DNA from: a virus
DNA: 64,000 nt
IMG/VR virus record: IMGVR_UViG_3300045988_011313
Span: 32,001-96,000 of that record
Strand: one strand, 5' to 3'
Below, piece after piece: positions 4,790-32,668 of the stretch (positions are counted from its first letter, which is position 1; the number at the start of each line of letters is the position of its first letter). A program made the translations under genes and the position numbers. Below the pieces are notes generated by a model that did not search any database, was not told where the DNA came from, and saw only the letters and a list, made by a program, of their open reading frames with translations.

Positions 4790-4803
4790 ATTACCTAAAT
4801 TAG

Positions 4804-4876
4804 TTGCGGGGGAGAGACTCGAACTCTCAACCTCAAGGTTATGAGCCTTGCTAGCTACCATTGCTATCACCCCACG
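4804..4876 (-). tRNA. tRNA-fMet(CAT), initiator type
   Basis: CGTGGGG...CCCCGCA-A gives a C1.A72 mismatch and A73, as in bacterial initiators. Anticodon loop CTCATAA; T-loop TTCGAGT. Confidence 0.8.
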
Positions 4877-4887
4877 ATGTATATTTG

Positions 4888-4959
4888 AGCAGATAGTGGG
4901 AATCGAACCCACACATTAACATTGGAAGTGTTACATACTAACCTTTATACTATACCTGC
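4888..4959 (-). tRNA. tRNA-Gly(TCC)
   Basis: Acceptor GCAGGTA/TATCTGC; anticodon loop CTTCCAA; T-arm GTGGG-TTCGATT-CCCAC. Confidence 0.8.
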
Positions 4960-4964
4960 ATTTG

Positions 4965-5037
4965 AGTAGATAATCAGACTTGAACTGACCCCTTGACATT
5001 GGCAATGTCATATGCTAACCACTAACACCATACCTAC
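4965..5037 (-). tRNA. tRNA-Gly(GCC)
   Basis: Acceptor GTAGGTA/TATCTAC; anticodon loop TTGCCAA. Confidence 0.8.
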
Positions 5038-5044
5038 ATTATAG

Positions 5045-5118
5045 AGCCTCCTGAAGGATTTGAACCCTCTCTTCCTGTTTACAAGACAGGCTTGCTAAAC
5101 CATTAACACTAAGGAGGC
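5045..5118 (-). tRNA. tRNA-Thr(TGT)
   Basis: Acceptor GCCTCCT/AGGAGGC; anticodon arm CCTGT-CTTGTAA-ACAGG. Confidence 0.8.
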
Positions 5119-5122
5119 ATTG

Positions 5123-5206
5123 TAGTCTAAGAGGGATTTGAACCCTCAATCCCTAAAGGGCGAGGGATTTTAAGTCCCTTGTGTATTCCAGTTCCACCAT
5201 TAGACC
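5123..5206 (-). tRNA. tRNA-Leu(TAA), class II
   Basis: Anticodon arm AGGGA-CTTAAAA-TCCCT, long variable arm, T-arm GAGGG-TTCAAAT-CCCTC. Confidence 0.8.
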
Positions 5207-5667
5207 ATTTTATTTTTCCCTCTGTAATTGTCTGTCAGAGCATGACAATTAGGACATAAGAGCTGTAAATTACCTATTTCATTATTACTATTATTACCAT
5301 CTTTGTGATGCAGCTCTAAAGGTATCTTTTGTCCTTGCCATTCAGACAACCCACATCTCTCACATCTATATTCTTTTATATTTTCTGAAAGTAATCTTCT
5401 CTTTAGATTGTTTGAGTTATATCTTGAAGGATTTACAAGAATCCTACTAAGAGGGAATTTCTTAACTACTGGAGAATATCTTTCACCAGAGTTCCATCCC
5501 TGACCTGTAAAGTGGGAAGTATCTATATTGTATAAATCAATTGCTTGATGTATAGTTCTGTAATTCCCTCCTACAGGCTTTATATGCAGGTATCTACATA
5601 CTTGTGCTATACTAAGACTGTTTCTTATAGCCTCTTCATATACTTCTCTACTTCTCAGTTTTGTCAT
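5200..5667 (-). CDS. HNH homing endonuclease (155 aa)
   Basis: HNH core ELHHKDGNNSNNEIGNLQLLCPNCHA preceded by CERCG. The last 7 nt, including the stop, overlap the 5' end of tRNA-Leu(TAA). Confidence 0.8.
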   Translation of the reverse strand: MTKLRSREVYEEAIRNSLSIAQVCRYLHIKPVGGNYRTIHQAIDLYNIDTSHFTGQGWNSGERYSPVVKKFPLSRILVNPSRYNSNNLKRRLLSENIKEYRCERCGLSEWQGQKIPLELHHKDGNNSNNEIGNLQLLCPNCHALTDNYRGKNKMV

Positions 5668-6113
5668 TAGTAAGGTCTTATATCACATAAGTGGAATAAG
5701 TAGTCATACTTATTGATATTCTGAATAAAGGTCTCACATTCAGATGTTATACCTTTATATATGGTCTCTTGAGGAATCTTATCATAGAATGCAATAGTAG
5801 CAGACTTAACTTCACTTATAAAGTCAAAAGCATTCAGTGCATCACTTGGAGTTCCTTTGATTACATTAGGTTGCATCTTACCAAGTATTCCCATATACCC
5901 TTCTGCAAGCCCATCCTGATAATCTGACAATATATCAAGGAACTCATCAAGATATACATGGATATTCTTCTTAGGTGCTGCCCAATGCAGATTCTTACAC
6001 TTAGTCTTCCAACCTTCAAGCTGATTTAAGAAGTTGATAAAGAGCTGAGAACCAGACACTTCAGTACTTCTGCTTGATTCCATTGGGGTAAATAGATTAT
6101 CTTCTCCAAACAT
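5667..6113 (-). CDS. Dps/ferritin-like protein candidate (148 aa)
   Basis: LFINFLNQLEGWKTKCKNLHWAAPKKNIHVYLDEFLDILSDYQDGLAE parallels the Dps signature (LN...K..HW...G..F..H..LDE......D.AER). Confidence 0.45.
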   Translation of the reverse strand: MFGEDNLFTPMESSRSTEVSGSQLFINFLNQLEGWKTKCKNLHWAAPKKNIHVYLDEFLDILSDYQDGLAEGYMGILGKMQPNVIKGTPSDALNAFDFISEVKSATIAFYDKIPQETIYKGITSECETFIQNINKYDYLFHLCDIRPY

Positions 6114-6133
6114 ATTCTCTTATTTTGATGGTG

Positions 6134-6165
6134 CAAAGATAAGTATTTTAATTGAAATATGCAAG
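6134..6165 (-). promoter_or_regulatory. Bacteroidota sigma-A-type promoter (minus strand)
   Basis: The minus strand reads TTGC-N19-TATCTTTGCA, which matches the -33 TTTG / -7 TAnnTTTG architecture. It lies about 20 nt upstream of the ATG at 6113. Confidence 0.5.
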
Positions 6166-6192
6166 TAAAATACTATATTTTTTTTTTATTTT

Positions 6193-6513
6193 TTAAAAAT
6201 AAAATACAGAGAGTAGAGTATAAGCTATTTTTGCCCATATACTCTGATTTATATTTAAATCTACTGTACCTGTCCTTCTTCTTTTTATATGTAAAAAGTA
6301 TAATAGATTATGTGCTCTCCATTCATTAACCATACCAAATATACTTCTCTTGTGTATAGCATAAGAATTATCACATGTGTTTCTTATCTTCTTTAAGACA
6401 TTAACCATGTCATTTATTCTCCTTATCCTATAAGAGTCTGTTATAGAAGTATTATAGGTACTTAAAAGCACATTAATAATGTACTCACTATATTTAATAT
6501 TAATCATTTTCAT
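6193..6513 (-). CDS. Hypothetical protein (106 aa)
   Basis: ORF track. The start codon lies 2 nt from the 3' end of tRNA-Leu(TAG). Confidence 0.55.
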   Translation of the reverse strand: MKMINIKYSEYIINVLLSTYNTSITDSYRIRRINDMVNVLKKIRNTCDNSYAIHKRSIFGMVNEWRAHNLLYFLHIKRRRTGTVDLNINQSIWAKIAYTLLSVFYF

Positions 6514-6515
6514 AG

Positions 6516-6604
6516 TACCCTCTAAGAGACTCGAACTCTTACACTACTATTACTTCATGTCTGCTTCTAAGGCAGATGTGTCTACCAAATTCCACCAAGA
6601 GGGC
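6516..6604 (-). tRNA. tRNA-Leu(TAG), class II
   Basis: Acceptor GCCCTCT/AGAGGGT; anticodon arm TCTGC-CTTAGAA-GCAGA; long variable arm. Confidence 0.8.
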
Positions 6605-6796
6605 ATATAGCCTTTGACCACCTTCGGCTATTAAAGTGAATGATACGACATTCATTAGGGGCTAGTCTTACTCTGTAAATATTATTAATATTCAGAAACC
6701 CTAAGAGTTACGTTGCTACATATAATCTAGAACTCATAGCTTTGTTAGTTCTTTTTAAGTGCTCACATACCTTGGTTAAATATGCAAGCACTACTG

Positions 6797-6871
6797 TGGG
6801 TGCTCAAAGAATCGAACTTTGTTCTAAGGATTTTCAGTCCTCCGCAATGTAACCATACCTGCCCAACACCC
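6797..6871 (-). tRNA. tRNA-Phe(GAA)
   Basis: Acceptor GGGTGTT/AGCACCC; anticodon loop CTGAAAA; T-arm CAAAG-TTCGATT-CTTTG. Confidence 0.75.
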
Positions 6872-6939
6872 ATAATGACTTATTTGTGTCTCTACCCACA
6901 TCACTTTCCATAAGTCAAGGACAAAGATTTCTATTGAAG

Positions 6940-7022
6940 TGGGGCAGAAAGGAATTGAACCTTAAATAGCCTGAGGCAGTGGATTTACAGTCCACACTAA
7001 TTCACCACATTAAAGCTACCCC
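6940..7022 (-). tRNA. tRNA-Tyr(GTA), class II
   Basis: Acceptor GGGGTAG/CTGCCCC; anticodon arm GTGGA-CTGTAAA-TCCAC; long variable arm. Confidence 0.8.
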
Positions 7023-7054
7023 ATATAATATTTATTACTCACTCCAACATCAAA

Positions 7055-7082
7055 GGAACTATATTCCAATTGGAATAGTTCC
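7055..7082 (-). other. Stable hairpin at the end of the mini-ORF
   Basis: GGAACT(AT)ATTCC-AATT-GGAAT-AGTTCC. On the minus strand it is followed by TTTG. Confidence 0.4.
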
Positions 7083-7166
7083 TGTAGGTGTCCAAGCATA
7101 AGACTTAGCAGCCTGTCTAAAATATGCCTTAGCACCTTTCTTAATTAATGAAATAACCTTTTTCAT
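7059..7166 (-). CDS. Possible 35-aa basic mini-protein (MKKVISLIKKGAKAYFRQAAKSYAWTPTGTIPIGI)
   Basis: My own translation; the ORF is below the track's length cut-off. It fills an otherwise unexplained 180-nt gap in the tRNA array. Confidence 0.3.
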   Translation of the reverse strand: MKKVISLIKKGAKAYFRQAAKSYAWTPTGTIPIGI

Positions 7167-7201
7167 AACAATTAAAAATTTGAAGTTAATAATATGTTAT
7201 G

Positions 7202-7274
7202 TTCCCCCATAAGGAATCGAACCTTACTCTCCAGATTAAAAGTCTAGAGCATCCACCATCAATGCTTTGGGGGA
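7202..7274 (-). tRNA. tRNA-Lys(TTT)
   Basis: Acceptor TCCCCCA/TGGGGGA; anticodon loop CTTTTAA. Confidence 0.8.
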
Positions 7275-7296
7275 GTATTTGCCAAGGTTGAGGTTG

Positions 7297-7370
7297 TGCT
7301 CCCACAAGGACTTGAACCTTGAGTCCCCTGTTTAAGAGACAGGTGCTTTAACCAATTCAGCTATAGGAGC
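7297..7370 (-). tRNA. tRNA-Lys(CTT)
   Basis: Acceptor GCTCCTA/TGGGAGC; anticodon arm CCTGT-CTCTTAA-ACAGG. Confidence 0.8.
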
Positions 7371-7371
7371 A

Positions 7372-7623
7372 TTATTTCTTTTCATACTTTTCAGACCATG
7401 CCTTAGTAATACCTGCTGATGCAAATACTCCAGCAACAGCACCTATATAAGCAGCAAGACCATTAAGGTCTGTCTGTATGGTATGATTATAACATATTTC
7501 TATTATAAGAAGTACAGCAGGAACTGATAGTAGGATTAAACCTATTAAAGTAACTGCCACTAAGAAGAAGTTCTTTGAAGAAATTCCTGTATTGTTCTTT
7601 ATAAGTTTATCTATATAACACAT
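7372..7623 (-). CDS. Small two-TM membrane protein (83 aa; holin-like topology)
   Basis: The track ORF 7372-7650 is trimmed to MCYIDKL because its first 9 codons are tRNA-Cys sequence. It has two hydrophobic helices and a charged C-terminus. Confidence 0.5.
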   Translation of the reverse strand: MCYIDKLIKNNTGISSKNFFLVAVTLIGLILLSVPAVLLIIEICYNHTIQTDLNGLAAYIGAVAGVFASAGITKAWSEKYEKK

Positions 7624-7625
7624 AG

Positions 7626-7700
7626 ACTTGGAGGTGGGATTTGAACCCACGAATCATCAGATTTGCAGTCTGTGCCCTTAGACCACTTAGGTACTCCAAG
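7626..7700 (-). tRNA. tRNA-Cys(GCA)
   Basis: Acceptor CTTGGAG/CTCCAAG; anticodon loop CTGCAAA; T-arm GTGGG-TTCAAAT-CCCAC. Confidence 0.75.
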
Positions 7701-7704
7701 ATAG

Positions 7705-7781
7705 TACTGGCAGAGGGGATTGAACCCACATGCAACCTATTACCCTTTCTACTGTGTATAAGACAGAGGGGATATGCCAGT
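7705..7781 (-). tRNA. Non-canonical 77-nt tRNA-like gene, anticodon loop CTTATAC (TAT, Ile/AUA); no canonical D-arm
   Basis: Perfect 7-bp acceptor ACTGGCA/TGCCAGT and T-arm GTGGG-TTCAATC-CCCTC. The acceptor is followed directly by an extended anticodon helix (CCC..CTGT-loop-ACAG..GGG), then a mini-hairpin GTAA-TAGG-TTGC. Confidence 0.5.
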
Positions 7782-7788
7782 ATATTGG

Positions 7789-7862
7789 GGTGTTAGATGG
7801 GATTTGAACCCACGCCATAAGGAGCCACAATCCTCTGCTCTACCTGACTGAGCTACTAACAC
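7789..7862 (-). tRNA. tRNA-His(GTG)
   Basis: Acceptor GTGTTAG/CTAACAC, C73, anticodon loop TTGTGGC. Confidence 0.8.
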
Positions 7863-7864
7863 AG

Positions 7865-7936
7865 TGCTGATGGAAAGACTCGAACTTTCAACTACTGCCT
7901 TATGAGAGCAGCCTTCTACCATTGAAGTACATCAAC
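7865..7936 (-). tRNA. tRNA-Met(CAT), elongator type (or Ile2 if lysidine-modified)
   Basis: Fully paired acceptor GTTGATG/CATCAGC; anticodon arm CTGCT-CTCATAA-GGCAG. Confidence 0.75.
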
Positions 7937-7957
7937 TATTACTCTTCTTGACCAATG

Positions 7958-8034
7958 TTGGGATGGTGAGAATTGAACTCACCTGTAACCAACTACTCTT
8001 TCAGCTGCTTATCAGACAGAGGAGATACATCCCA
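7958..8034 (-). tRNA. Non-canonical 77-nt tRNA-like gene, anticodon loop CTGATAA (GAT, Ile); paralog of 7705-7781
   Basis: Acceptor TGGGATG/CATCCCA and T-arm GTGAG-TTCAATT-CTCAC, with the same D-arm-less layout as its paralog. Compensatory changes relative to the paralog: CCC/GGG becomes CTC/GAG, and GTAA/TTGC becomes GTAG/TTAC. Confidence 0.5.
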
Positions 8035-8039
8035 ATATG

Positions 8040-8112
8040 CTGAGAAGATAGGAATTGAACCCATAACTGCTGGTTTTGGAGACCAGTGCTCTACCAATTG
8101 AGCTACTTCCCA
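8040..8112 (-). tRNA. tRNA-Trp(CCA)
   Basis: Acceptor TGGGAAG/CTTCTCA, G73, anticodon arm CTGGT-CTCCAAA-ACCAG. Confidence 0.8.
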
Positions 8113-8121
8113 ATTACTTAG

Positions 8122-8194
8122 TTGCAGGTAGTGGATTTGCACCACTGGTCTCCCCATTAAGGGTAGGGCGAGATTACTACTTCTCTAACCTGCT
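8122..8194 (-). tRNA. Atypical tRNA-like gene (anticodon loop CCCTTAA; possible pseudogene)
   Basis: The cloverleaf folds (D GAGA/TCTC, anticodon stem CCCTA/TGGGG, T-stem AGTGG/CCACT). It has an A1.A72 mismatch, C at position 33, and T-loop TGCAAAT (G55). Confidence 0.4.
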
Positions 8195-8303
8195 AAAACA
8201 TCAAATCATTGATTACTTCTTCTTATTGCACTCAGAGAACTTTCAGAAATGATGTCATCAAGTATTGCAAGCTACTTGACTAAACTTCTTGCAAAAGTTT
8301 TTG

Positions 8304-8375
8304 CGGGACCTGTAAGACTCGAACTTACATCTAAGGGTTAACAGCCCCTTGTTCTAACCTTTGAACTAAAGACCC
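8304..8375 (-). tRNA. tRNA-Asn(GTT)
   Basis: Anticodon arm AGGGG-CTGTTAA-CCCTT; T-arm GTAAG-TTCGAGT-CTTAC; one T.T mismatch in the acceptor stem. Confidence 0.75.
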
Positions 8376-8382
8376 ATTTATG

Positions 8383-8456
8383 TTGCTCCTATTAGAATTG
8401 AACTAATGACCTTTTCCTTGTAAGGGAACTATTCTAAACCACTGAACTAAGGAGCA
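8383..8456 (-). tRNA. tRNA-Val(TAC)
   Basis: Acceptor TGCTCCT/AGGAGCA; anticodon loop CTTACAA. Confidence 0.75.
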
Positions 8457-8462
8457 TTGATA

Positions 8463-8490
8463 GGGCAGTTTCTTTAACCTCTAACTGCCC
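8463..8490. other. 8-bp GC-rich hairpin between tRNA-Ala and tRNA-Val
   Basis: GGGCAGTT-N12-AACTGCCC. There is no U-tract on the transcribed strand. Confidence 0.4.
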
Positions 8491-8542
8491 AAAAGATGGT
8501 TCAAGCAAAAGCTCAACATTATGAAAACATGAAAACATAGTG

Positions 8543-8616
8543 TGGACCTTGTGAGATTTGAACTCCTCTAAAACATTGCAAATGTCTTGTGCTAACCTGA
8601 TTACACTACAAAGCCC
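8543..8616 (-). tRNA. tRNA-Ala(TGC)
   Basis: Acceptor GGGCTTT/AAGGTCC with the G3.U70 identity pair; anticodon loop TTTGCAA. The T-stem is weak (3 good pairs). Confidence 0.7.
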
Positions 8617-8621
8617 ATTAG

Positions 8622-8694
8622 TATGGGTACTTGGACTTGAACCAAGGACAACTGGCTCCCAAAGCCAGCATTCTACCTACTGAATTACACCCAT
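8622..8694 (-). tRNA. tRNA-Pro(TGG)
   Basis: Acceptor ATGGGTG/TACCCAT; anticodon arm CTGGC-TTTGGGA-GCCAG. Confidence 0.8.
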
Positions 8695-8700
8695 ATATTG

Positions 8701-8786
8701 CGGAGAGCATTGTACTCGAAACAAATACCTTATTAGGGTACTCACTATTTAGCAGATAGGACTATCACCTTGATAGTTTACTCTCC
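8701..8786 (-). tRNA. tRNA-Ser(GCT), class II
   Basis: Acceptor GGAGAGT/GCTCTCC, G73, anticodon loop CTGCTAA, variable-arm hairpin GTACC/GGTAT. Confidence 0.7.
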
Positions 8787-8827
8787 ATACTTTCCTTCAC
8801 CAATATGTCAAAGAACACCTATTATTG

Positions 8828-8912
8828 CGGAGAGATGAGGTCCCGACCCCCAAGCATTTTACTGCTCCCATTGTTTTCAAGACAAGTCCCAGTCCCACTG
8901 AGTTACCTCTCC
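8828..8912 (-). tRNA. tRNA-Ser(TGA), class II
   Basis: Acceptor GGAGAGG/TCTCTCC, G73, anticodon loop CTTGAAA, variable arm GAGCA/TGCTT, unusual T-loop GTCGGGA. Confidence 0.7.
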
Positions 8913-8966
8913 ATTGCCTACCTACCTCTGTAGGATAGGACTTCAGTAGATTAAAAGTGGATTAGC

Positions 8967-9037
8967 AGGATGTGGGAGAATTGAACTCCAATCTTCTGAT
9001 TGACAGTCAGACACATTAACCACTATGCTACACACCC
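8967..9037 (-). tRNA. tRNA-Asp(GTC)
   Basis: Acceptor GGGTGTG/CACATCC; anticodon arm TCTGA-CTGTCAA-TCAGA. The T-stem appears to be only 4 bp. Confidence 0.7.
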
Positions 9038-9044
9038 TAAGTTG

Positions 9045-9116
9045 TAGAGCTATTGGGAATTGAACCCAAGTTTCTGCCTTGAGAGAGCAGTTACCTATCC
9101 ACTAGTAGATAGCTCT
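9045..9116 (-). tRNA. tRNA-Glu(CTC)
   Basis: Acceptor AGAGCTA/TAGCTCT; anticodon arm CTGCT-CTCTCAA-GGCAG; T-arm TTGGG-TTCAATT-CCCAA. Confidence 0.75.
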
Positions 9117-9122
9117 ATATTG

Positions 9123-9196
9123 TATTGGGTATGGGGCTTGAACCCATAATCTCCACATTGAAAGTGTGGTGACTTAACCACTTCGTCTAACCCAAC
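9123..9196 (-). tRNA. tRNA-Glu(TTC)
   Basis: Acceptor GTTGGGT/ACCCAAT; anticodon arm CCACA-CTTTCAA-TGTGG. Confidence 0.75.
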
Positions 9197-9202
9197 ATTT
9201 AG

Positions 9203-9274
9203 TACCCCCTGAGGGAATTGAACCCCCATTAAAGGCTTAGAAGGCCCTTGCATTATCCATTATACTAAGAGGGC
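9203..9274 (-). tRNA. tRNA-Arg(TCT)
   Basis: Acceptor GCCCTCT/AGGGGGT; anticodon arm AGGGC-CTTCTAA-GCCTT. Confidence 0.8.
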
Positions 9275-9291
9275 ATTTACCTTTACTATTG

Positions 9292-9364
9292 TTACCCCAA
9301 TAAGACTTGAACTTATGTTACAGGAGCCAAAATCCCGTGTAATAACCAACTATACTATGGGGCA
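9292..9364 (-). tRNA. tRNA-Gln(TTG)
   Basis: Acceptor TGCCCCA/TGGGGTA; anticodon arm CGGGA-TTTTGGC-TCCTG. Confidence 0.8.
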
Positions 9365-11669: not shown

Positions 11670-11740
11670 GGAGGTATTAGTACAATGTTAGTACATAACT
11701 TATTGCAGTTATATGGTAGTTCAAGTCTATCATACCTCCC
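11670..11740 (+). ncRNA. Degenerate tRNA-like element
   Basis: Acceptor GGAGGTA/TACCTCC (or G-1 plus GAGGTAT/ATACCTC, C73), D GTAC/GTAC, T-arm GGTAG-TTCAAGT-CTATC. The anticodon stem ATAACT/AGTTAT closes a 6-nt loop TATTGC, and the variable region is too short. Confidence 0.35.
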
Positions 11741-15906: not shown

Positions 15907-15980
15907 ACTCTCATAGCTCAGCAGCATAGAGCATTGGTTTCCTAAACCAAGGGTCGAGGGTTGGAGTCCCTCTGGGAGTA
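15907..15980 (+). tRNA. tRNA-Arg(CCT)
   Basis: Acceptor ACTCTCA/TGGGAGT; D GCTC/GAGC; anticodon arm TTGGT-TTCCTAA-ACCAA; T-loop TTGGAGT (G at position 56). Confidence 0.75.
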
Positions 15981-16069
15981 CTAAGGTGTTATTTGTAAAG
16001 GTAATTTGATTGTTTTTAGGTATTTATTATAGGAAACTGGTATGTGATATATAGGTTTCCTTTTGTTAT

Positions 16070-16141
16070 GTCTCCATAGTTCAAGGGATAGAACAATAGT
16101 CTTCTAAACTATATATCTGAGTTCGAGTCTCAGTGGAGATA
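16070..16141 (+). tRNA. tRNA-Arg(TCT), second copy
   Basis: Acceptor GTCTCCA/TGGAGAT; anticodon arm ATAGT-CTTCTAA-ACTAT; T-arm CTGAG-TTCGAGT-CTCAG. Confidence 0.8.
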
Positions 16142-16352
16142 CAATGTCTATTTAACTACTATTTCCTGACCATGCTGTGCAAAATGACTGAAAATGTGGT
16201 GCTGATAGGTAAGCTATCACCACTTATAAATGCAACTACTTCAATGTGGGGATATAAAGAGAAAGTTACGTGACTTTAATAATGATGTTTCAATAGGAAA
16301 CAATATTTGACTTTGTTAGGACATTCTTTCAATAAGAAATGAATCCAAATAA

Positions 16353-16735
16353 GGGGCATTTTTTGGTTTTGATTGCTGATTATTTAGTAAGAGAACATGC
16401 AAAGACTGATGGAAAGACATCAAAACAATAACTGGCAATACTTCTTATAGAGTTGCTGCCTAAATAGGCTGAGTAGCACTTACTTGGAAACAGAAAGGTG
16501 CAAAGCCTGAATGAAGACTAAGGCTGAGGGTCCTACTTTAAGAGCATTAATAGGCTGTGGTCTCGCAGAAGGTAACTCAACTTTTTCCTTGTTTATGGAC
16601 AATAAAATAAGGTGGTGGAAATGCTGTAAATCCAGACAGACCCAGTGGGTAACTGACCACATTAAAAAGTAGTAAGCATGTGTAATTCTTTTATTAAAGA
16701 TTAGTAAGACAGGGGTTCGATTCCCCTATGCTCCA
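16353..16735 (+). ncRNA. ssrA: tmRNA (SsrA), about 383 nt, with tag ORF GNTSYRVAA*
   Basis: The 5' GGGGCAT pairs with the 3' ATGCTCC, including the G3.U70 alanine identity pair, and A follows as discriminator. The 3' T-arm is AGGGG-TTCGATT-CCCCT. The 5' TGGTTTTGA resembles Bacteroidota tmRNA. The internal frame ggc aat act tct tat aga gtt gct gcc taa lies at 16434-16463. Confidence 0.8.
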
Positions 16736-16769
16736 CAAAATAACTTTAGTATTAACTAAAAAAAAAAGT

Positions 16770-31994: not shown

Positions 31995-32668
31995 CATTAG
32001 ATGAATACTTTGGAGATTGGATGAAAGTAATTGATAGGGCAGAGCTAAACAATGTAATGGCTAAGGTTGGACAGGAATATAGGAGGAAGCCTCTATGTCC
32101 TGCCCAATCTGATGTGTTCAGAGCATTTGAGCTTTGTCCTCTCAAGGACTTAAAAGTAGTTATGTTAGGTCAAGACCCCTATCCACAAAAGGGAGTTGCA
32201 ACTGGCATACTTTTTGGTAACAAGAAGGAGGTTGATGAGGATAACTTGTCTCCTTCATTAAATGTTGTTAAAGAAGCAGCCATTAATTTTGAGATTCCAC
32301 ATTATTGTATTACCTTTGACCAAACTTTAGAGAGTTGGGCTAAACAAGGAATACTAATGATAAACTCAGCTTTGACTGTGGAGATGAACAGGATAGGCTC
32401 CCATGTGATGATGTGGAGACCTTTCATAGCTAAACTGTTGAAAAACCTGTCTGAATATGACACAGCCATAGTATATGTGCTATTTGGCAGACAGGCTCAG
32501 ACTTTCAAACCTTATATCAATAGTAGATTCAATCACATTATAGAGATTGAACATCCTGCATACTTTGCAAGGAGTGGCACTAAGATGCCACACCAACTAT
32601 TTATTGATATAAGTAATAGAGTAAAAGGAATTTATGGTGTACCAATAAAATGGTACGAAGAGTATTAA
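31991..32668 (+). CDS. ung: Uracil-DNA glycosylase, family 1-like (225 aa)
   Basis: Water-activating loop VVMLGQDPYP, later IEHPAYFARSG (HPSP-loop equivalent), and an MINSALTV segment. Confidence 0.75.
   Translation: MTLDEYFGDWMKVIDRAELNNVMAKVGQEYRRKPLCPAQSDVFRAFELCPLKDLKVVMLGQDPYPQKGVATGILFGNKKEVDEDNLSPSLNVVKEAAINFEIPHYCITFDQTLESWAKQGILMINSALTVEMNRIGSHVMMWRPFIAKLLKNLSEYDTAIVYVLFGRQAQTFKPYINSRFNHIIEIEHPAYFARSGTKMPHQLFIDISNRVKGIYGVPIKWYEEY

Follow-up and report, generated by a model that had tools for sequence, protein, structure and literature searches.

Putative tRNA-Ile genes with a permuted D-arm in a crAss001-like phage genome and in other phages

A 64,000-nt stretch of the IMG/VR virus record IMGVR_UViG_3300045988_011313 (positions 32,001–96,000 of that record; hereafter "the window"), part of a crAss001-like Crassvirales genome, carries a tRNA array on its minus strand (4803–9364) in which two 77-nt genes, A and B, depart from the cloverleaf plan. 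In both genes, the 5′ strand of the D-stem and the D-loop are found 3′ of the anticodon arm. We conclude that A and B almost certainly belong to a selected, structured RNA family and that positions 10–44 of this family, i.e. the D/anticodon domain, are very probably circularly permuted internally. A, with anticodon UAU (predicted to read AUA), and B, with GAU (predicted to read AUU and AUC), are probably working tRNA-Ile genes on a rewired tRNA plan.

A sequence-only reading of the window had singled out both genes, and its placement of them was correct, both lying on the minus strand. The plus strand was rejected as the coding strand, the array being on the minus strand and nothing tRNA-like lying there on the plus strand. 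The anatomy of the two genes is as follows, with "equivalent" denoting positions of ordinary tRNA.

7705–7781, minus: gene A, 77 nt, candidate permuted tRNA-Ile(UAU); RNA position p lies at window position 7781−(p−1)
7775–7781, minus: A, 5′ strand of the acceptor stem, pairing with 7706–7712 (ACUGGCA/UGCCAGU, 7/7 Watson–Crick)
7769–7774, minus: A, U8 A9 (7774–7773), U10 (7772) and CCC (7771–7769), the last being the equivalent of D-stem 3′ strand 23–25
7751–7768, minus: A, C14 (position-26 equivalent) and anticodon arm, U·U plus CUGU/CUUAUAC/ACAG, with anticodon UAU at 7760–7758
7746–7750, minus: A, A32 and GAAA linker, joining the 3′ end of the anticodon stem to the D-stem 5′-strand equivalent
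7745–7742, minus: A, GGGU (10–13 equivalent)
7741–7733, minus: A, D-loop-like AAUAGGUUG (14–21 equivalent), in which A41, G45 and G46 are invariant and R42 covaries with N52
7732–7730, minus: A, CAU, the final U being the position-48 equivalent
7713–7729, minus: A, T-arm GUGGG/UUCAAUC/CCCUC, with one U·U mismatch
7705, minus: A, discriminator A73, invariantly A in the 41-sequence alignment described below
7958–8034, minus: gene B, 77 nt, candidate permuted tRNA-Ile(GAU); RNA position p lies at window position 8034−(p−1)
Ends of 7958–8034, minus: B, acceptor stem UGGGAUG/CAUCCCA, 7/7 Watson–Crick
8022–8027, minus: B, U8 A9, U10 and CUC (D-stem 3′-strand equivalent)
8004–8021, minus: B, C14 and anticodon arm, U·C plus CUGU/CUGAUAA/GCAG, with anticodon GAU at 8013–8011
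8003–7999, minus: B, U32 and GAAA linker
7998–7995, 7994–7986 and 7985–7983, minus: B, GAGU, D-loop-like AGUUGGUUA and CAG; G42/G52 is a G:G variant of the 15:48-like pair
7958–7982, minus: B, T-arm GUGAG/UUCAAUU/CUCAC (T-stem 5/5), acceptor 3′ strand CAUCCCA and discriminator A

The outer parts of both genes are those of a tRNA, namely a 7-bp acceptor stem, perfectly paired in each copy as had been proposed, a 5-bp T-stem and a UUCRA T-loop. T-arms described earlier as standard are so in B (five of five pairs), while the T-stem of A contains one U·U mismatch. The predicted 7-nt loops, CUUAUAC with anticodon UAU and CUGAUAA with GAU, are present, each closed by an anticodon stem and carrying U33 and a purine at 37. 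Also found were the outer 3-bp helix (CCC/GGG in A, CUC/GAG in B) and the inner 4-bp helix (CUGU/ACAG and CUGU/GCAG) of the proposed extended anticodon helix; the outer pair C12–G38 of A is U12–A38 in B, a true compensatory change. The 27:43 equivalent (RNA positions 15 and 31; window 7767/7751 in A and 8020/8004 in B) is a conserved pyrimidine mismatch, U·U or U·C. The two genes had further been said to possess no D-arm. This stands insofar as no D stem-loop comes after U8-A9, none being present between positions 9 and 26; it does not stand insofar as a D-stem-like helix, whose strands flank the anticodon arm, and a D-loop-like strand exist.

Standard tRNA finders pass over this architecture. 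ARAGORN called neither A nor B in its normal or its armless (mitochondrial, -mt) mode, called 0 of 51 family members in native order and likewise detected none in armless mode. At its gathering score of 29, the Rfam tRNA model (RF00005) reported neither gene, which are thus not tRNAs by the curated scores of these tools; under permissive settings A reached 27.1 bits by way of a D-arm deletion and an 18-nt variable-region insertion, and B went unreported at any threshold tried. The organellar-mode check suggested with the sequence-only reading therefore recovered no cloverleaf or armless alignment, nor did the covariance model yield an overlooked cloverleaf. Folding of single sequences was uninformative, the minimum free energy of A being no better than that of shuffled sequences (z = −0.45) and that of B belonging to another, non-tRNA fold. 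Ordinary genes of the array can also be missed: ARAGORN overlooks a Thr(UGU) gene at 5045–5118 (minus; Rfam 51.9 bits), and Rfam with default filters overlooks Lys(CUU) at 8122–8194 (minus; 45.7 bits under relaxed filters).

Homologs were gathered by three pattern scans of IMG/VR and a covariance model (R1) built from their matches; the search patterns fixed parts of the core, including, in the first sets, the GAAA linker. In total, 117 distinct sequences of the permuted architecture were found in IMG/VR viral contigs and cultured phages. R1 scores A at 96 bits and B at 94.6 bits, compared to at most 22.3 for every other tRNA of the array; given this gap and the 117 distinct homologs, A and B stand far beyond chance.

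Compensatory change is found throughout the family. In an alignment of 41 sequences, double changes occur at seven of seven acceptor pairs, four of five T-stem pairs and three of three pairs of the outer helix (11–13/37–39). The latter is 100% paired and comes as CCC/GGG, CUC/GAG, CGC/GCG, UCC/GGA, ACC/GGU, AGG/CCU, CGG/CCG and CCG/CGG. A second, model-derived alignment that includes divergent members (62 distinct rows) contains double changes in 20 of 21 pairs, among them all four of the anticodon stem (100% paired). None of 500 shuffles of this alignment reached the observed values, and sliding the pairing partners lowered pairing from 93% to 40–53%. RNAalifold, run de novo, arrived at the same fold as the covariation model. 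Two earlier proposals thus find support, that the outer helix is selected and that the differences between the copies keep pairing intact and reflect selection as opposed to decay, since all four helices covary.

The strand 3′ of the outer helix reads U-A-R-Y-N-G-G-U-N-R-C-A-N, matching, after U13, the D-loop consensus (A14 R15 Y16 Y17 G18 G19 U20 N A/G21). A resemblance to a D-loop had been noticed before, and the alignment of 41 sequences bears it out, with A41, G45 and G46 invariant; U8 and A9 are invariant as well, and of 120 distinct genes pooled, 117 have the T-loop UUCRA. Covariation also links position 42 (R15) to position 52, the base immediately preceding the T-stem: of 41 sequences with A at 42, 39 have U at 52, and the 26 with G divide into 15 with C, 9 with G and 2 with U (Fisher 1e-13, uncorrected for relatedness; 67 distinct sequences unconstrained at that site, UAGAAAGG in the linker being kept out of the D-loop match). 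Judged from these sequences, the two positions behave like an R15:Y48 Levitt pair; the G15:G48 variant occurs in E. coli tRNA-Cys.

In an ordinary tRNA, the chain runs from the acceptor through U8 A9, 10–13, the D-loop (14–21), 22–25, 26, the anticodon arm (27–43) and the variable loop (44–48) to the T-arm. The order proposed for the family would instead be acceptor, U8 A9, [22–25], 26, anticodon arm, 44, linker, [10–13], [14–21], ...48 and T-arm, with the anticodon arm nested within the D-stem, the D-loop outside it and segment 10–21 at the position of the variable loop. When this order was reversed in silico by putting the block 37–49 between A9 and position 10, ARAGORN called 50 of the 51 members as tRNA-Ile(GAU/UAU) or Met(CAU). 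The invariant columns of the de-permuted 73-nt alignment fall on canonical U8, A9, A14, G18, G19, G53, U55, C56, C61 and A73, and U54 and A58 are nearly invariant; once reordered, the family has all of the tertiary-contact bases U8, A14, R15:Y48, G18 G19 and U54 U55 C56. A cloverleaf model of the de-permuted sequences (R2) scored the 26 ordinary non-Ile tRNAs of the window at ~32 bits on average (maximum 49.7), compared to ~15 bits (maximum 22.3) for the native-order model, and was higher for each of them.

The D-like helix forms and runs on into the anticodon stem as a single hairpin. Its stack would count 10 layers (U10·U40, C11–G39, C12–G38, C13–G37, C14–G33, U15·U31 and four Watson–Crick pairs); the canonical stack is made up of four D-stem pairs, 26:44 and five anticodon-stem pairs. 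With layer counts being equal, the distance from the anticodon to the acceptor and elbow should be kept. The relocated D-loop would still form the U8–A14, R15–Y48 and G18G19–T-loop contacts of the L-shaped elbow, and RNase P, the CCA-adding enzyme, EF-Tu, isoleucyl-tRNA synthetase (IleRS) and the ribosome would, on account of these contacts, encounter a molecule of nearly normal outline. Within the GAAA linker, the three As are predicted to bulge out where the D and anticodon helices meet; in this hinge region, the D-stem groove is normally occupied by bases 9, 45 and 46. A kink-turn reading of this AAA bulge was rejected on inspection, tandem G·A pairs being absent. The GAAA linker recurs in nearly all 77-nt members recovered by a pattern-independent scan. 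Divergent members possess linkers of unrelated, 4–12-nt sequence (AGAA, CAUUAACC, GGAUUAUAAUG and others), as is expected of a bridging element.

Gene order suggests what the two genes might do. In the window, A is flanked by tRNA-Cys and tRNA-His, and B by tRNA-Met and tRNA-Trp. The corresponding arrays of crAss001 and cr85_1 run Lys-Lys-Ile(UAU)-[His]-Met-Ile(GAU)-Trp, with both Ile genes being canonical cloverleafs; by synteny, A and B occupy the slots of these canonical Ile(UAU) and Ile(GAU) genes. The cultured Kehishuvirus "tikkala", which grows on Bacteroides cellulosilyticus, encodes a canonical Ile(UAU) and has the odd form in the GAU slot, within an annotation gap. The rest of the window's array is near-complete apart from Ile. 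The view of A and B as its sole Ile decoders held for the window, as the tRNA at 5045–5118 missed by ARAGORN is Thr(UGU). A tRNA-Ser was not found in the window by ARAGORN or Rfam; crAss001 has Ser(GCU). The window has a G+C content of 36%, and its long open reading frames (ORFs) use 69 Ile codons per 1000, 21 per 1000 being AUA.

The anticodons likewise point to isoleucine. A scan blind to the anticodon, anchored on the relocated D-loop and the T-arm, returned permuted genes whose anticodons were all NAU (UAU 47, GAU 6, CAU 3), and a census of the 117 distinct genes counted UAU in 80, GAU in 25, CAU in 7, Arg ACG in 2, Arg UCU in 2 and one probable misparse. Among arrays covered by at least eight canonical tRNAs, 35 held only the odd form of the UAU gene, 20 only the canonical form and none both; for GAU, these numbers were 35, 17 and 3. 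This complementarity per anticodon argues that the odd form does the same job as the canonical one. The two forms mix freely among phages, an odd UAU gene occurring with a canonical GAU gene, the reverse, or both genes being odd as in the window. RNase P, 3′-end processing, CCA addition and EF-Tu read mainly the acceptor/T-arm domain. No tRNA of the array encodes CCA, and almost all have just one C after the discriminator. A and B share this signature and lie 4–5 nt from most adjacent tRNAs, which fits the same RNase P and 3′-end processing and CCA addition as for their neighbors. Taken as a whole, the family likely acts as tRNA-Ile in translation, as far as its sequences can tell.

Several points weigh against this account. 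The family does not conserve the D-stem and acceptor-stem pairs that serve E. coli IleRS as identity elements. Replacement of the canonical gene is not absolute, given the three arrays that hold both forms of Ile(GAU), and the Microbacterium phage A3Wally appears to hold a canonical as well as a permuted Arg(ACG) gene, going by the record label tRNA-Arg(cgt). The tertiary contacts and the count of 10 layers all derive from sequence. As to the statistics, many of the contigs are close kin, so that the shuffle and Fisher values overstate independence, and the core was in part fixed by the patterns used in sequence gathering. The ARAGORN test is lenient: with the block shifted by 4 nt, 45 of 51 members were still called, and with the block reversed, 6 of 51. 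Lastly, the U·U at the 27:43 equivalent of the main clade leaves four Watson–Crick pairs in the anticodon stem; 4-bp anticodon stems of bacterial tRNAs are linked to relaxed ("superwobble") decoding in a 2026 paper (PMC13092985).

An organellar kind of D-armless tRNA, with an extended anticodon helix, a small hairpin in the variable arm and a floppy "boomerang" shape devoid of the D-loop/T-loop elbow, would have a secondary structure identical to that of the permuted model up to position 39. The two diverge at the hairpin 39–42/47–50, which the sequence-only reading had put forward. It can be drawn in both A and B, and its pairs 40:49 and 42:47 could form in every sequence that has both bases. 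However, it shows zero compensatory change, is not predicted by RNAalifold and is broken at 39:50 in 12 and at 41:48 in 13 of the 41 aligned sequences; position 39 covaries with 11 instead, G39 being claimed by both the hairpin and the outer helix. The hairpin, moreover, leaves the 42:52 covariation unexplained. Organellar D-armless tRNAs lose the conservation of the GG and the T-loop, whereas G45-G46 and UUCRA are almost invariant here, and the armless mode of ARAGORN detects nothing. This alternative is accordingly quite unlikely, and the hairpin as proposed is not upheld; its closing U40:R49 pair, equivalent to 13:22, is possibly the one part that survives.

The same sequences could in principle serve outside translation, as a tRNA mimic acting as a decoy for a toxin or enzyme that targets host tRNA-Ile, or as an element for processing or regulation of the array. 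An unusually invariant core in phages of unrelated hosts could reflect one specific protein partner, and a role against host nucleases that attack tRNA has been suggested for phage tRNAs (PMC10264068). Yet the odd genes are distributed complementarily to canonical tRNA-Ile genes of the same anticodon and are the only Ile decoders in a near-complete array in the window, and a decoy for one enzyme would have no need of three Ile-box anticodons, intact 7-nt loops, 7-bp acceptors and an invariant A73. We therefore deem a mimic unlikely. That standard tools fail on A and B might also be expected of tRNA-Ile pseudogenes decaying after a rearrangement, and one homolog, L077:3603–3676, does have a disrupted 3′ acceptor strand (73.7 bits compared to ~95 for others) and lies beside a canonical Ile(UAU); this copy is probably a pseudogene made redundant. 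For the family at large, decay is left a negligible chance by the 117 distinct sequences, in which all helices show compensatory changes and the tertiary-contact bases are invariant, and by their presence in cultured phages of Actinomycetota and Bacteroidota, and on the aligned sequences the covariation can, for practical purposes, be said to refute it.

Reading the family as permuted tRNA-Ile, we compared it to known tRNA kinds. With canonical tRNA-Ile (RF00005), it shares the 7-bp acceptor, A73, the 5-bp T-stem with UUCRA, the 7-nt loop with U33/A37, the Ile-box anticodons, the array slots and the lack of an encoded CCA; it differs in having no D stem-loop between A9 and 26 and in placing the D 5′ strand and D-loop after the anticodon arm. 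A non-canonical order of gene segments is also known from the permuted tRNA genes of Cyanidioschyzon merolae, in which the two halves stand in reverse order, 3′ half first, and a circular intermediate is spliced to a normal tRNA, and from archaeal split tRNA genes; both depend on eukaryotic or archaeal splicing enzymes. The phage genes are not of the C. merolae type, their acceptor strands lying at the two ends of the 77 nt (7/7 paired) and only the internal block 10–44 being permuted. We know of no splicing machinery for permuted tRNAs in bacteria, and the mature phage RNA should for this reason keep the permuted order.

Metazoan mitochondrial D-armless tRNAs (e.g. tRNA-Ser(AGY) and those of nematodes and arachnids; PMC4013460, PMC7609411) resemble the family in having no conventional D-arm and an acceptor that leads almost directly into the anticodon helix. 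In those tRNAs, the D-arm has given way to a short connector on the 5′ side of the anticodon stem, and the molecules are short, flexible and dependent on adapted organellar partners. In contrast, the phage RNA is of full length (77 nt), has a 5′ connector of 3 nt (U8 A9 U10) and a 13-nt D-loop-like strand on the 3′ side, keeps its elbow bases invariant and is set in bacterial translation; neither its connector and its behavior toward armless models nor its elbow bases thus place it among the organellar D-armless tRNAs. A long stretch between the anticodon arm and the T-arm is shared with class II tRNAs (Leu, Ser, Tyr) and with allo-tRNAs, the latter being found in phage tRNA clusters too (PMC5389517). 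Those tRNAs, however, keep the D stem-loop and fold the long stretch as a variable-arm hairpin, and allo-tRNAs have an 8/4 or 9/3 branch (same source), whereas the phage RNA has a 7/5 branch, no D stem-loop and a single-stranded stretch with D-loop sequence whose conceivable hairpin lacks covariation, which sets it apart from class II and allo-tRNAs alike. The permuted family would, hence, be a tRNA with a new chain topology. A published description of a permuted-D-arm tRNA was not found in the literature searched, with subscription-only journals outside its scope; neither phages nor permutation come up in a 2020 review of non-canonical tRNAs.

Carriers range from crAss-like genomes of ~100 kb to contigs of jumbo size (>400 kb). 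Among cultured phages, BLAST located the gene in about 77 that infect Streptomyces (130–136 kb; Samistivirus and relatives), and Microbacterium phages were found to carry a version for arginine. Permuted genes with arginine anticodons (ACG, UCU) were seen at L109:3995–4071 (A3Wally), L033:634–709, L089:9511–9585 and L094:4361–4438; their anticodon stems and linkers differ from those of the Ile members. A scan with one core pattern of 185,579 bacterial and archaeal species, represented by one genome each, gave seven matches, all on contigs of metagenome-assembled genomes (MAGs). The two of these that were inspected are both phage, encoding a large terminase or other phage-family proteins. Restriction of the family to phages is well supported by these data and, as the cellular scan used one sub-pattern, not proven.

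Annotation has largely bypassed the family. No gene is annotated at the match in tikkala or in almost any of the roughly 80 genomes of cultured Streptomyces phages. The gene is also unannotated in bajarodcaudo virus 1, in which the stretch examined bears no tRNA annotation at all. In EGole (L110:301–377; MK494112, 75265–75341), the record gives the exact 77-nt borders of the permuted Ile(GAU) gene but labels it tRNA-Leu with codon UUA. As to its surroundings, the permuted gene lies directly 3′ of the gene for a phage tRNA nucleotidyltransferase in Streptomyces phages (Mildred21, L108:3465–4077), and on a 210-kb MAG contig (L104:4522–7366) it lies near matches to a phage-family tRNA-His guanylyltransferase and an RNA-binding protein.

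Other RNA features of the window include a phage transfer-messenger RNA (tmRNA) at 16353–16738 (plus; tag peptide GNTSYRVAA*; Rfam 71.9 bits), which is preceded by two tRNA-Arg genes (CCU, UCU) at 15907–16142 (plus), ~7 kb from the main array. A sub-threshold match to the Rfam family YrlA (Y RNA-like) at 7836–7894 (minus; 28.7 bits compared to a gathering score of 69) spans the tRNA-Met/tRNA-His junction and is most likely an artefact of neighboring tRNA arms. Outside the array, 11671–11739 (plus) matches both family models weakly (23.7 and 17.6 bits). It was rejected as a family member, being probably a chance match on which the Rfam tRNA model is silent and which overlaps small ORFs.

Regarding the origin of the family, canonical and odd genes that occupy one and the same slot are unlike each other in acceptor and T stem, which argues that whole genes were exchanged; remodeling in place, by a swap of the central domain alone, fails on the same ground. 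The anticodon arm of canonical phage Ile(UAU) genes is very similar (e.g. UCUGU-CUUAUAA-GCAGA in Mildred21) and suggests descent from a phage tRNA-Ile. In the most probable scenario, the family arose from a phage tRNA-Ile and travels by whole-gene replacement, each odd gene taking over the slot of a canonical Ile gene. The anticodon-blind scan additionally uncovered a second class of phage tRNA-Ile(UAU) of ~89 nt (about 30 distinct genes: L211, L214, L219, L115, L120 and ~25 further IMG/VR loci), all 30 of which ARAGORN calls as tRNA-Ile. They possess a normal D-arm, an A·C mismatch at 31:39 and an unpaired 22-nt variable region, AAGCAACAGAUAAUUGGUUCAU, that carries the UAAUUGGUU-CAU motif of the permuted family. 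A D-loop in both places is what a duplicate-then-delete route to circular permutation predicts. This class could be a "double D-loop" relative or an intermediate, although its flanking bases match too poorly for it to be called the latter.

Across phages of Bacteroidota and Actinomycetota, the core hardly varies, in contrast to the freely drifting acceptor and T stems, which indicates that selection acts on the core itself. Escape from host tRNA nucleases has been put forward as a force that shapes phage tRNAs (PMC10264068). One might speculate that the rewired core resists a nuclease or other factor that reads the normal connectivity of D-arm and variable loop. In a broader and rather doubtful version of this idea, phages of unrelated hosts would exchange the rewired scaffold, mainly for Ile and occasionally for Arg, as an L-shape that is accepted by IleRS, EF-Tu and the ribosome yet, owing to an altered course of the backbone through its core, goes unrecognized by host tRNA-directed nucleases, by defense or shut-off factors, or by the phage's own enzymes that destroy host tRNA.

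As ARAGORN and Rfam miss permuted genes, phage tRNA repertoires, and "missing Ile" calls in particular, are wrong for such genomes. Cultured and tractable carriers are at hand in the Streptomyces phages and in tikkala on Bacteroides cellulosilyticus, and the compact, rewired scaffold could interest engineers of orthogonal tRNAs; were escape from host nucleases its purpose, it would represent a natural stealth or orthogonal tRNA architecture. If the account given here is true, the family would provide a natural example of a tRNA serving bacterial translation despite a broken cloverleaf chain order, and the translation machinery would need the L-shape, not the connectivity.

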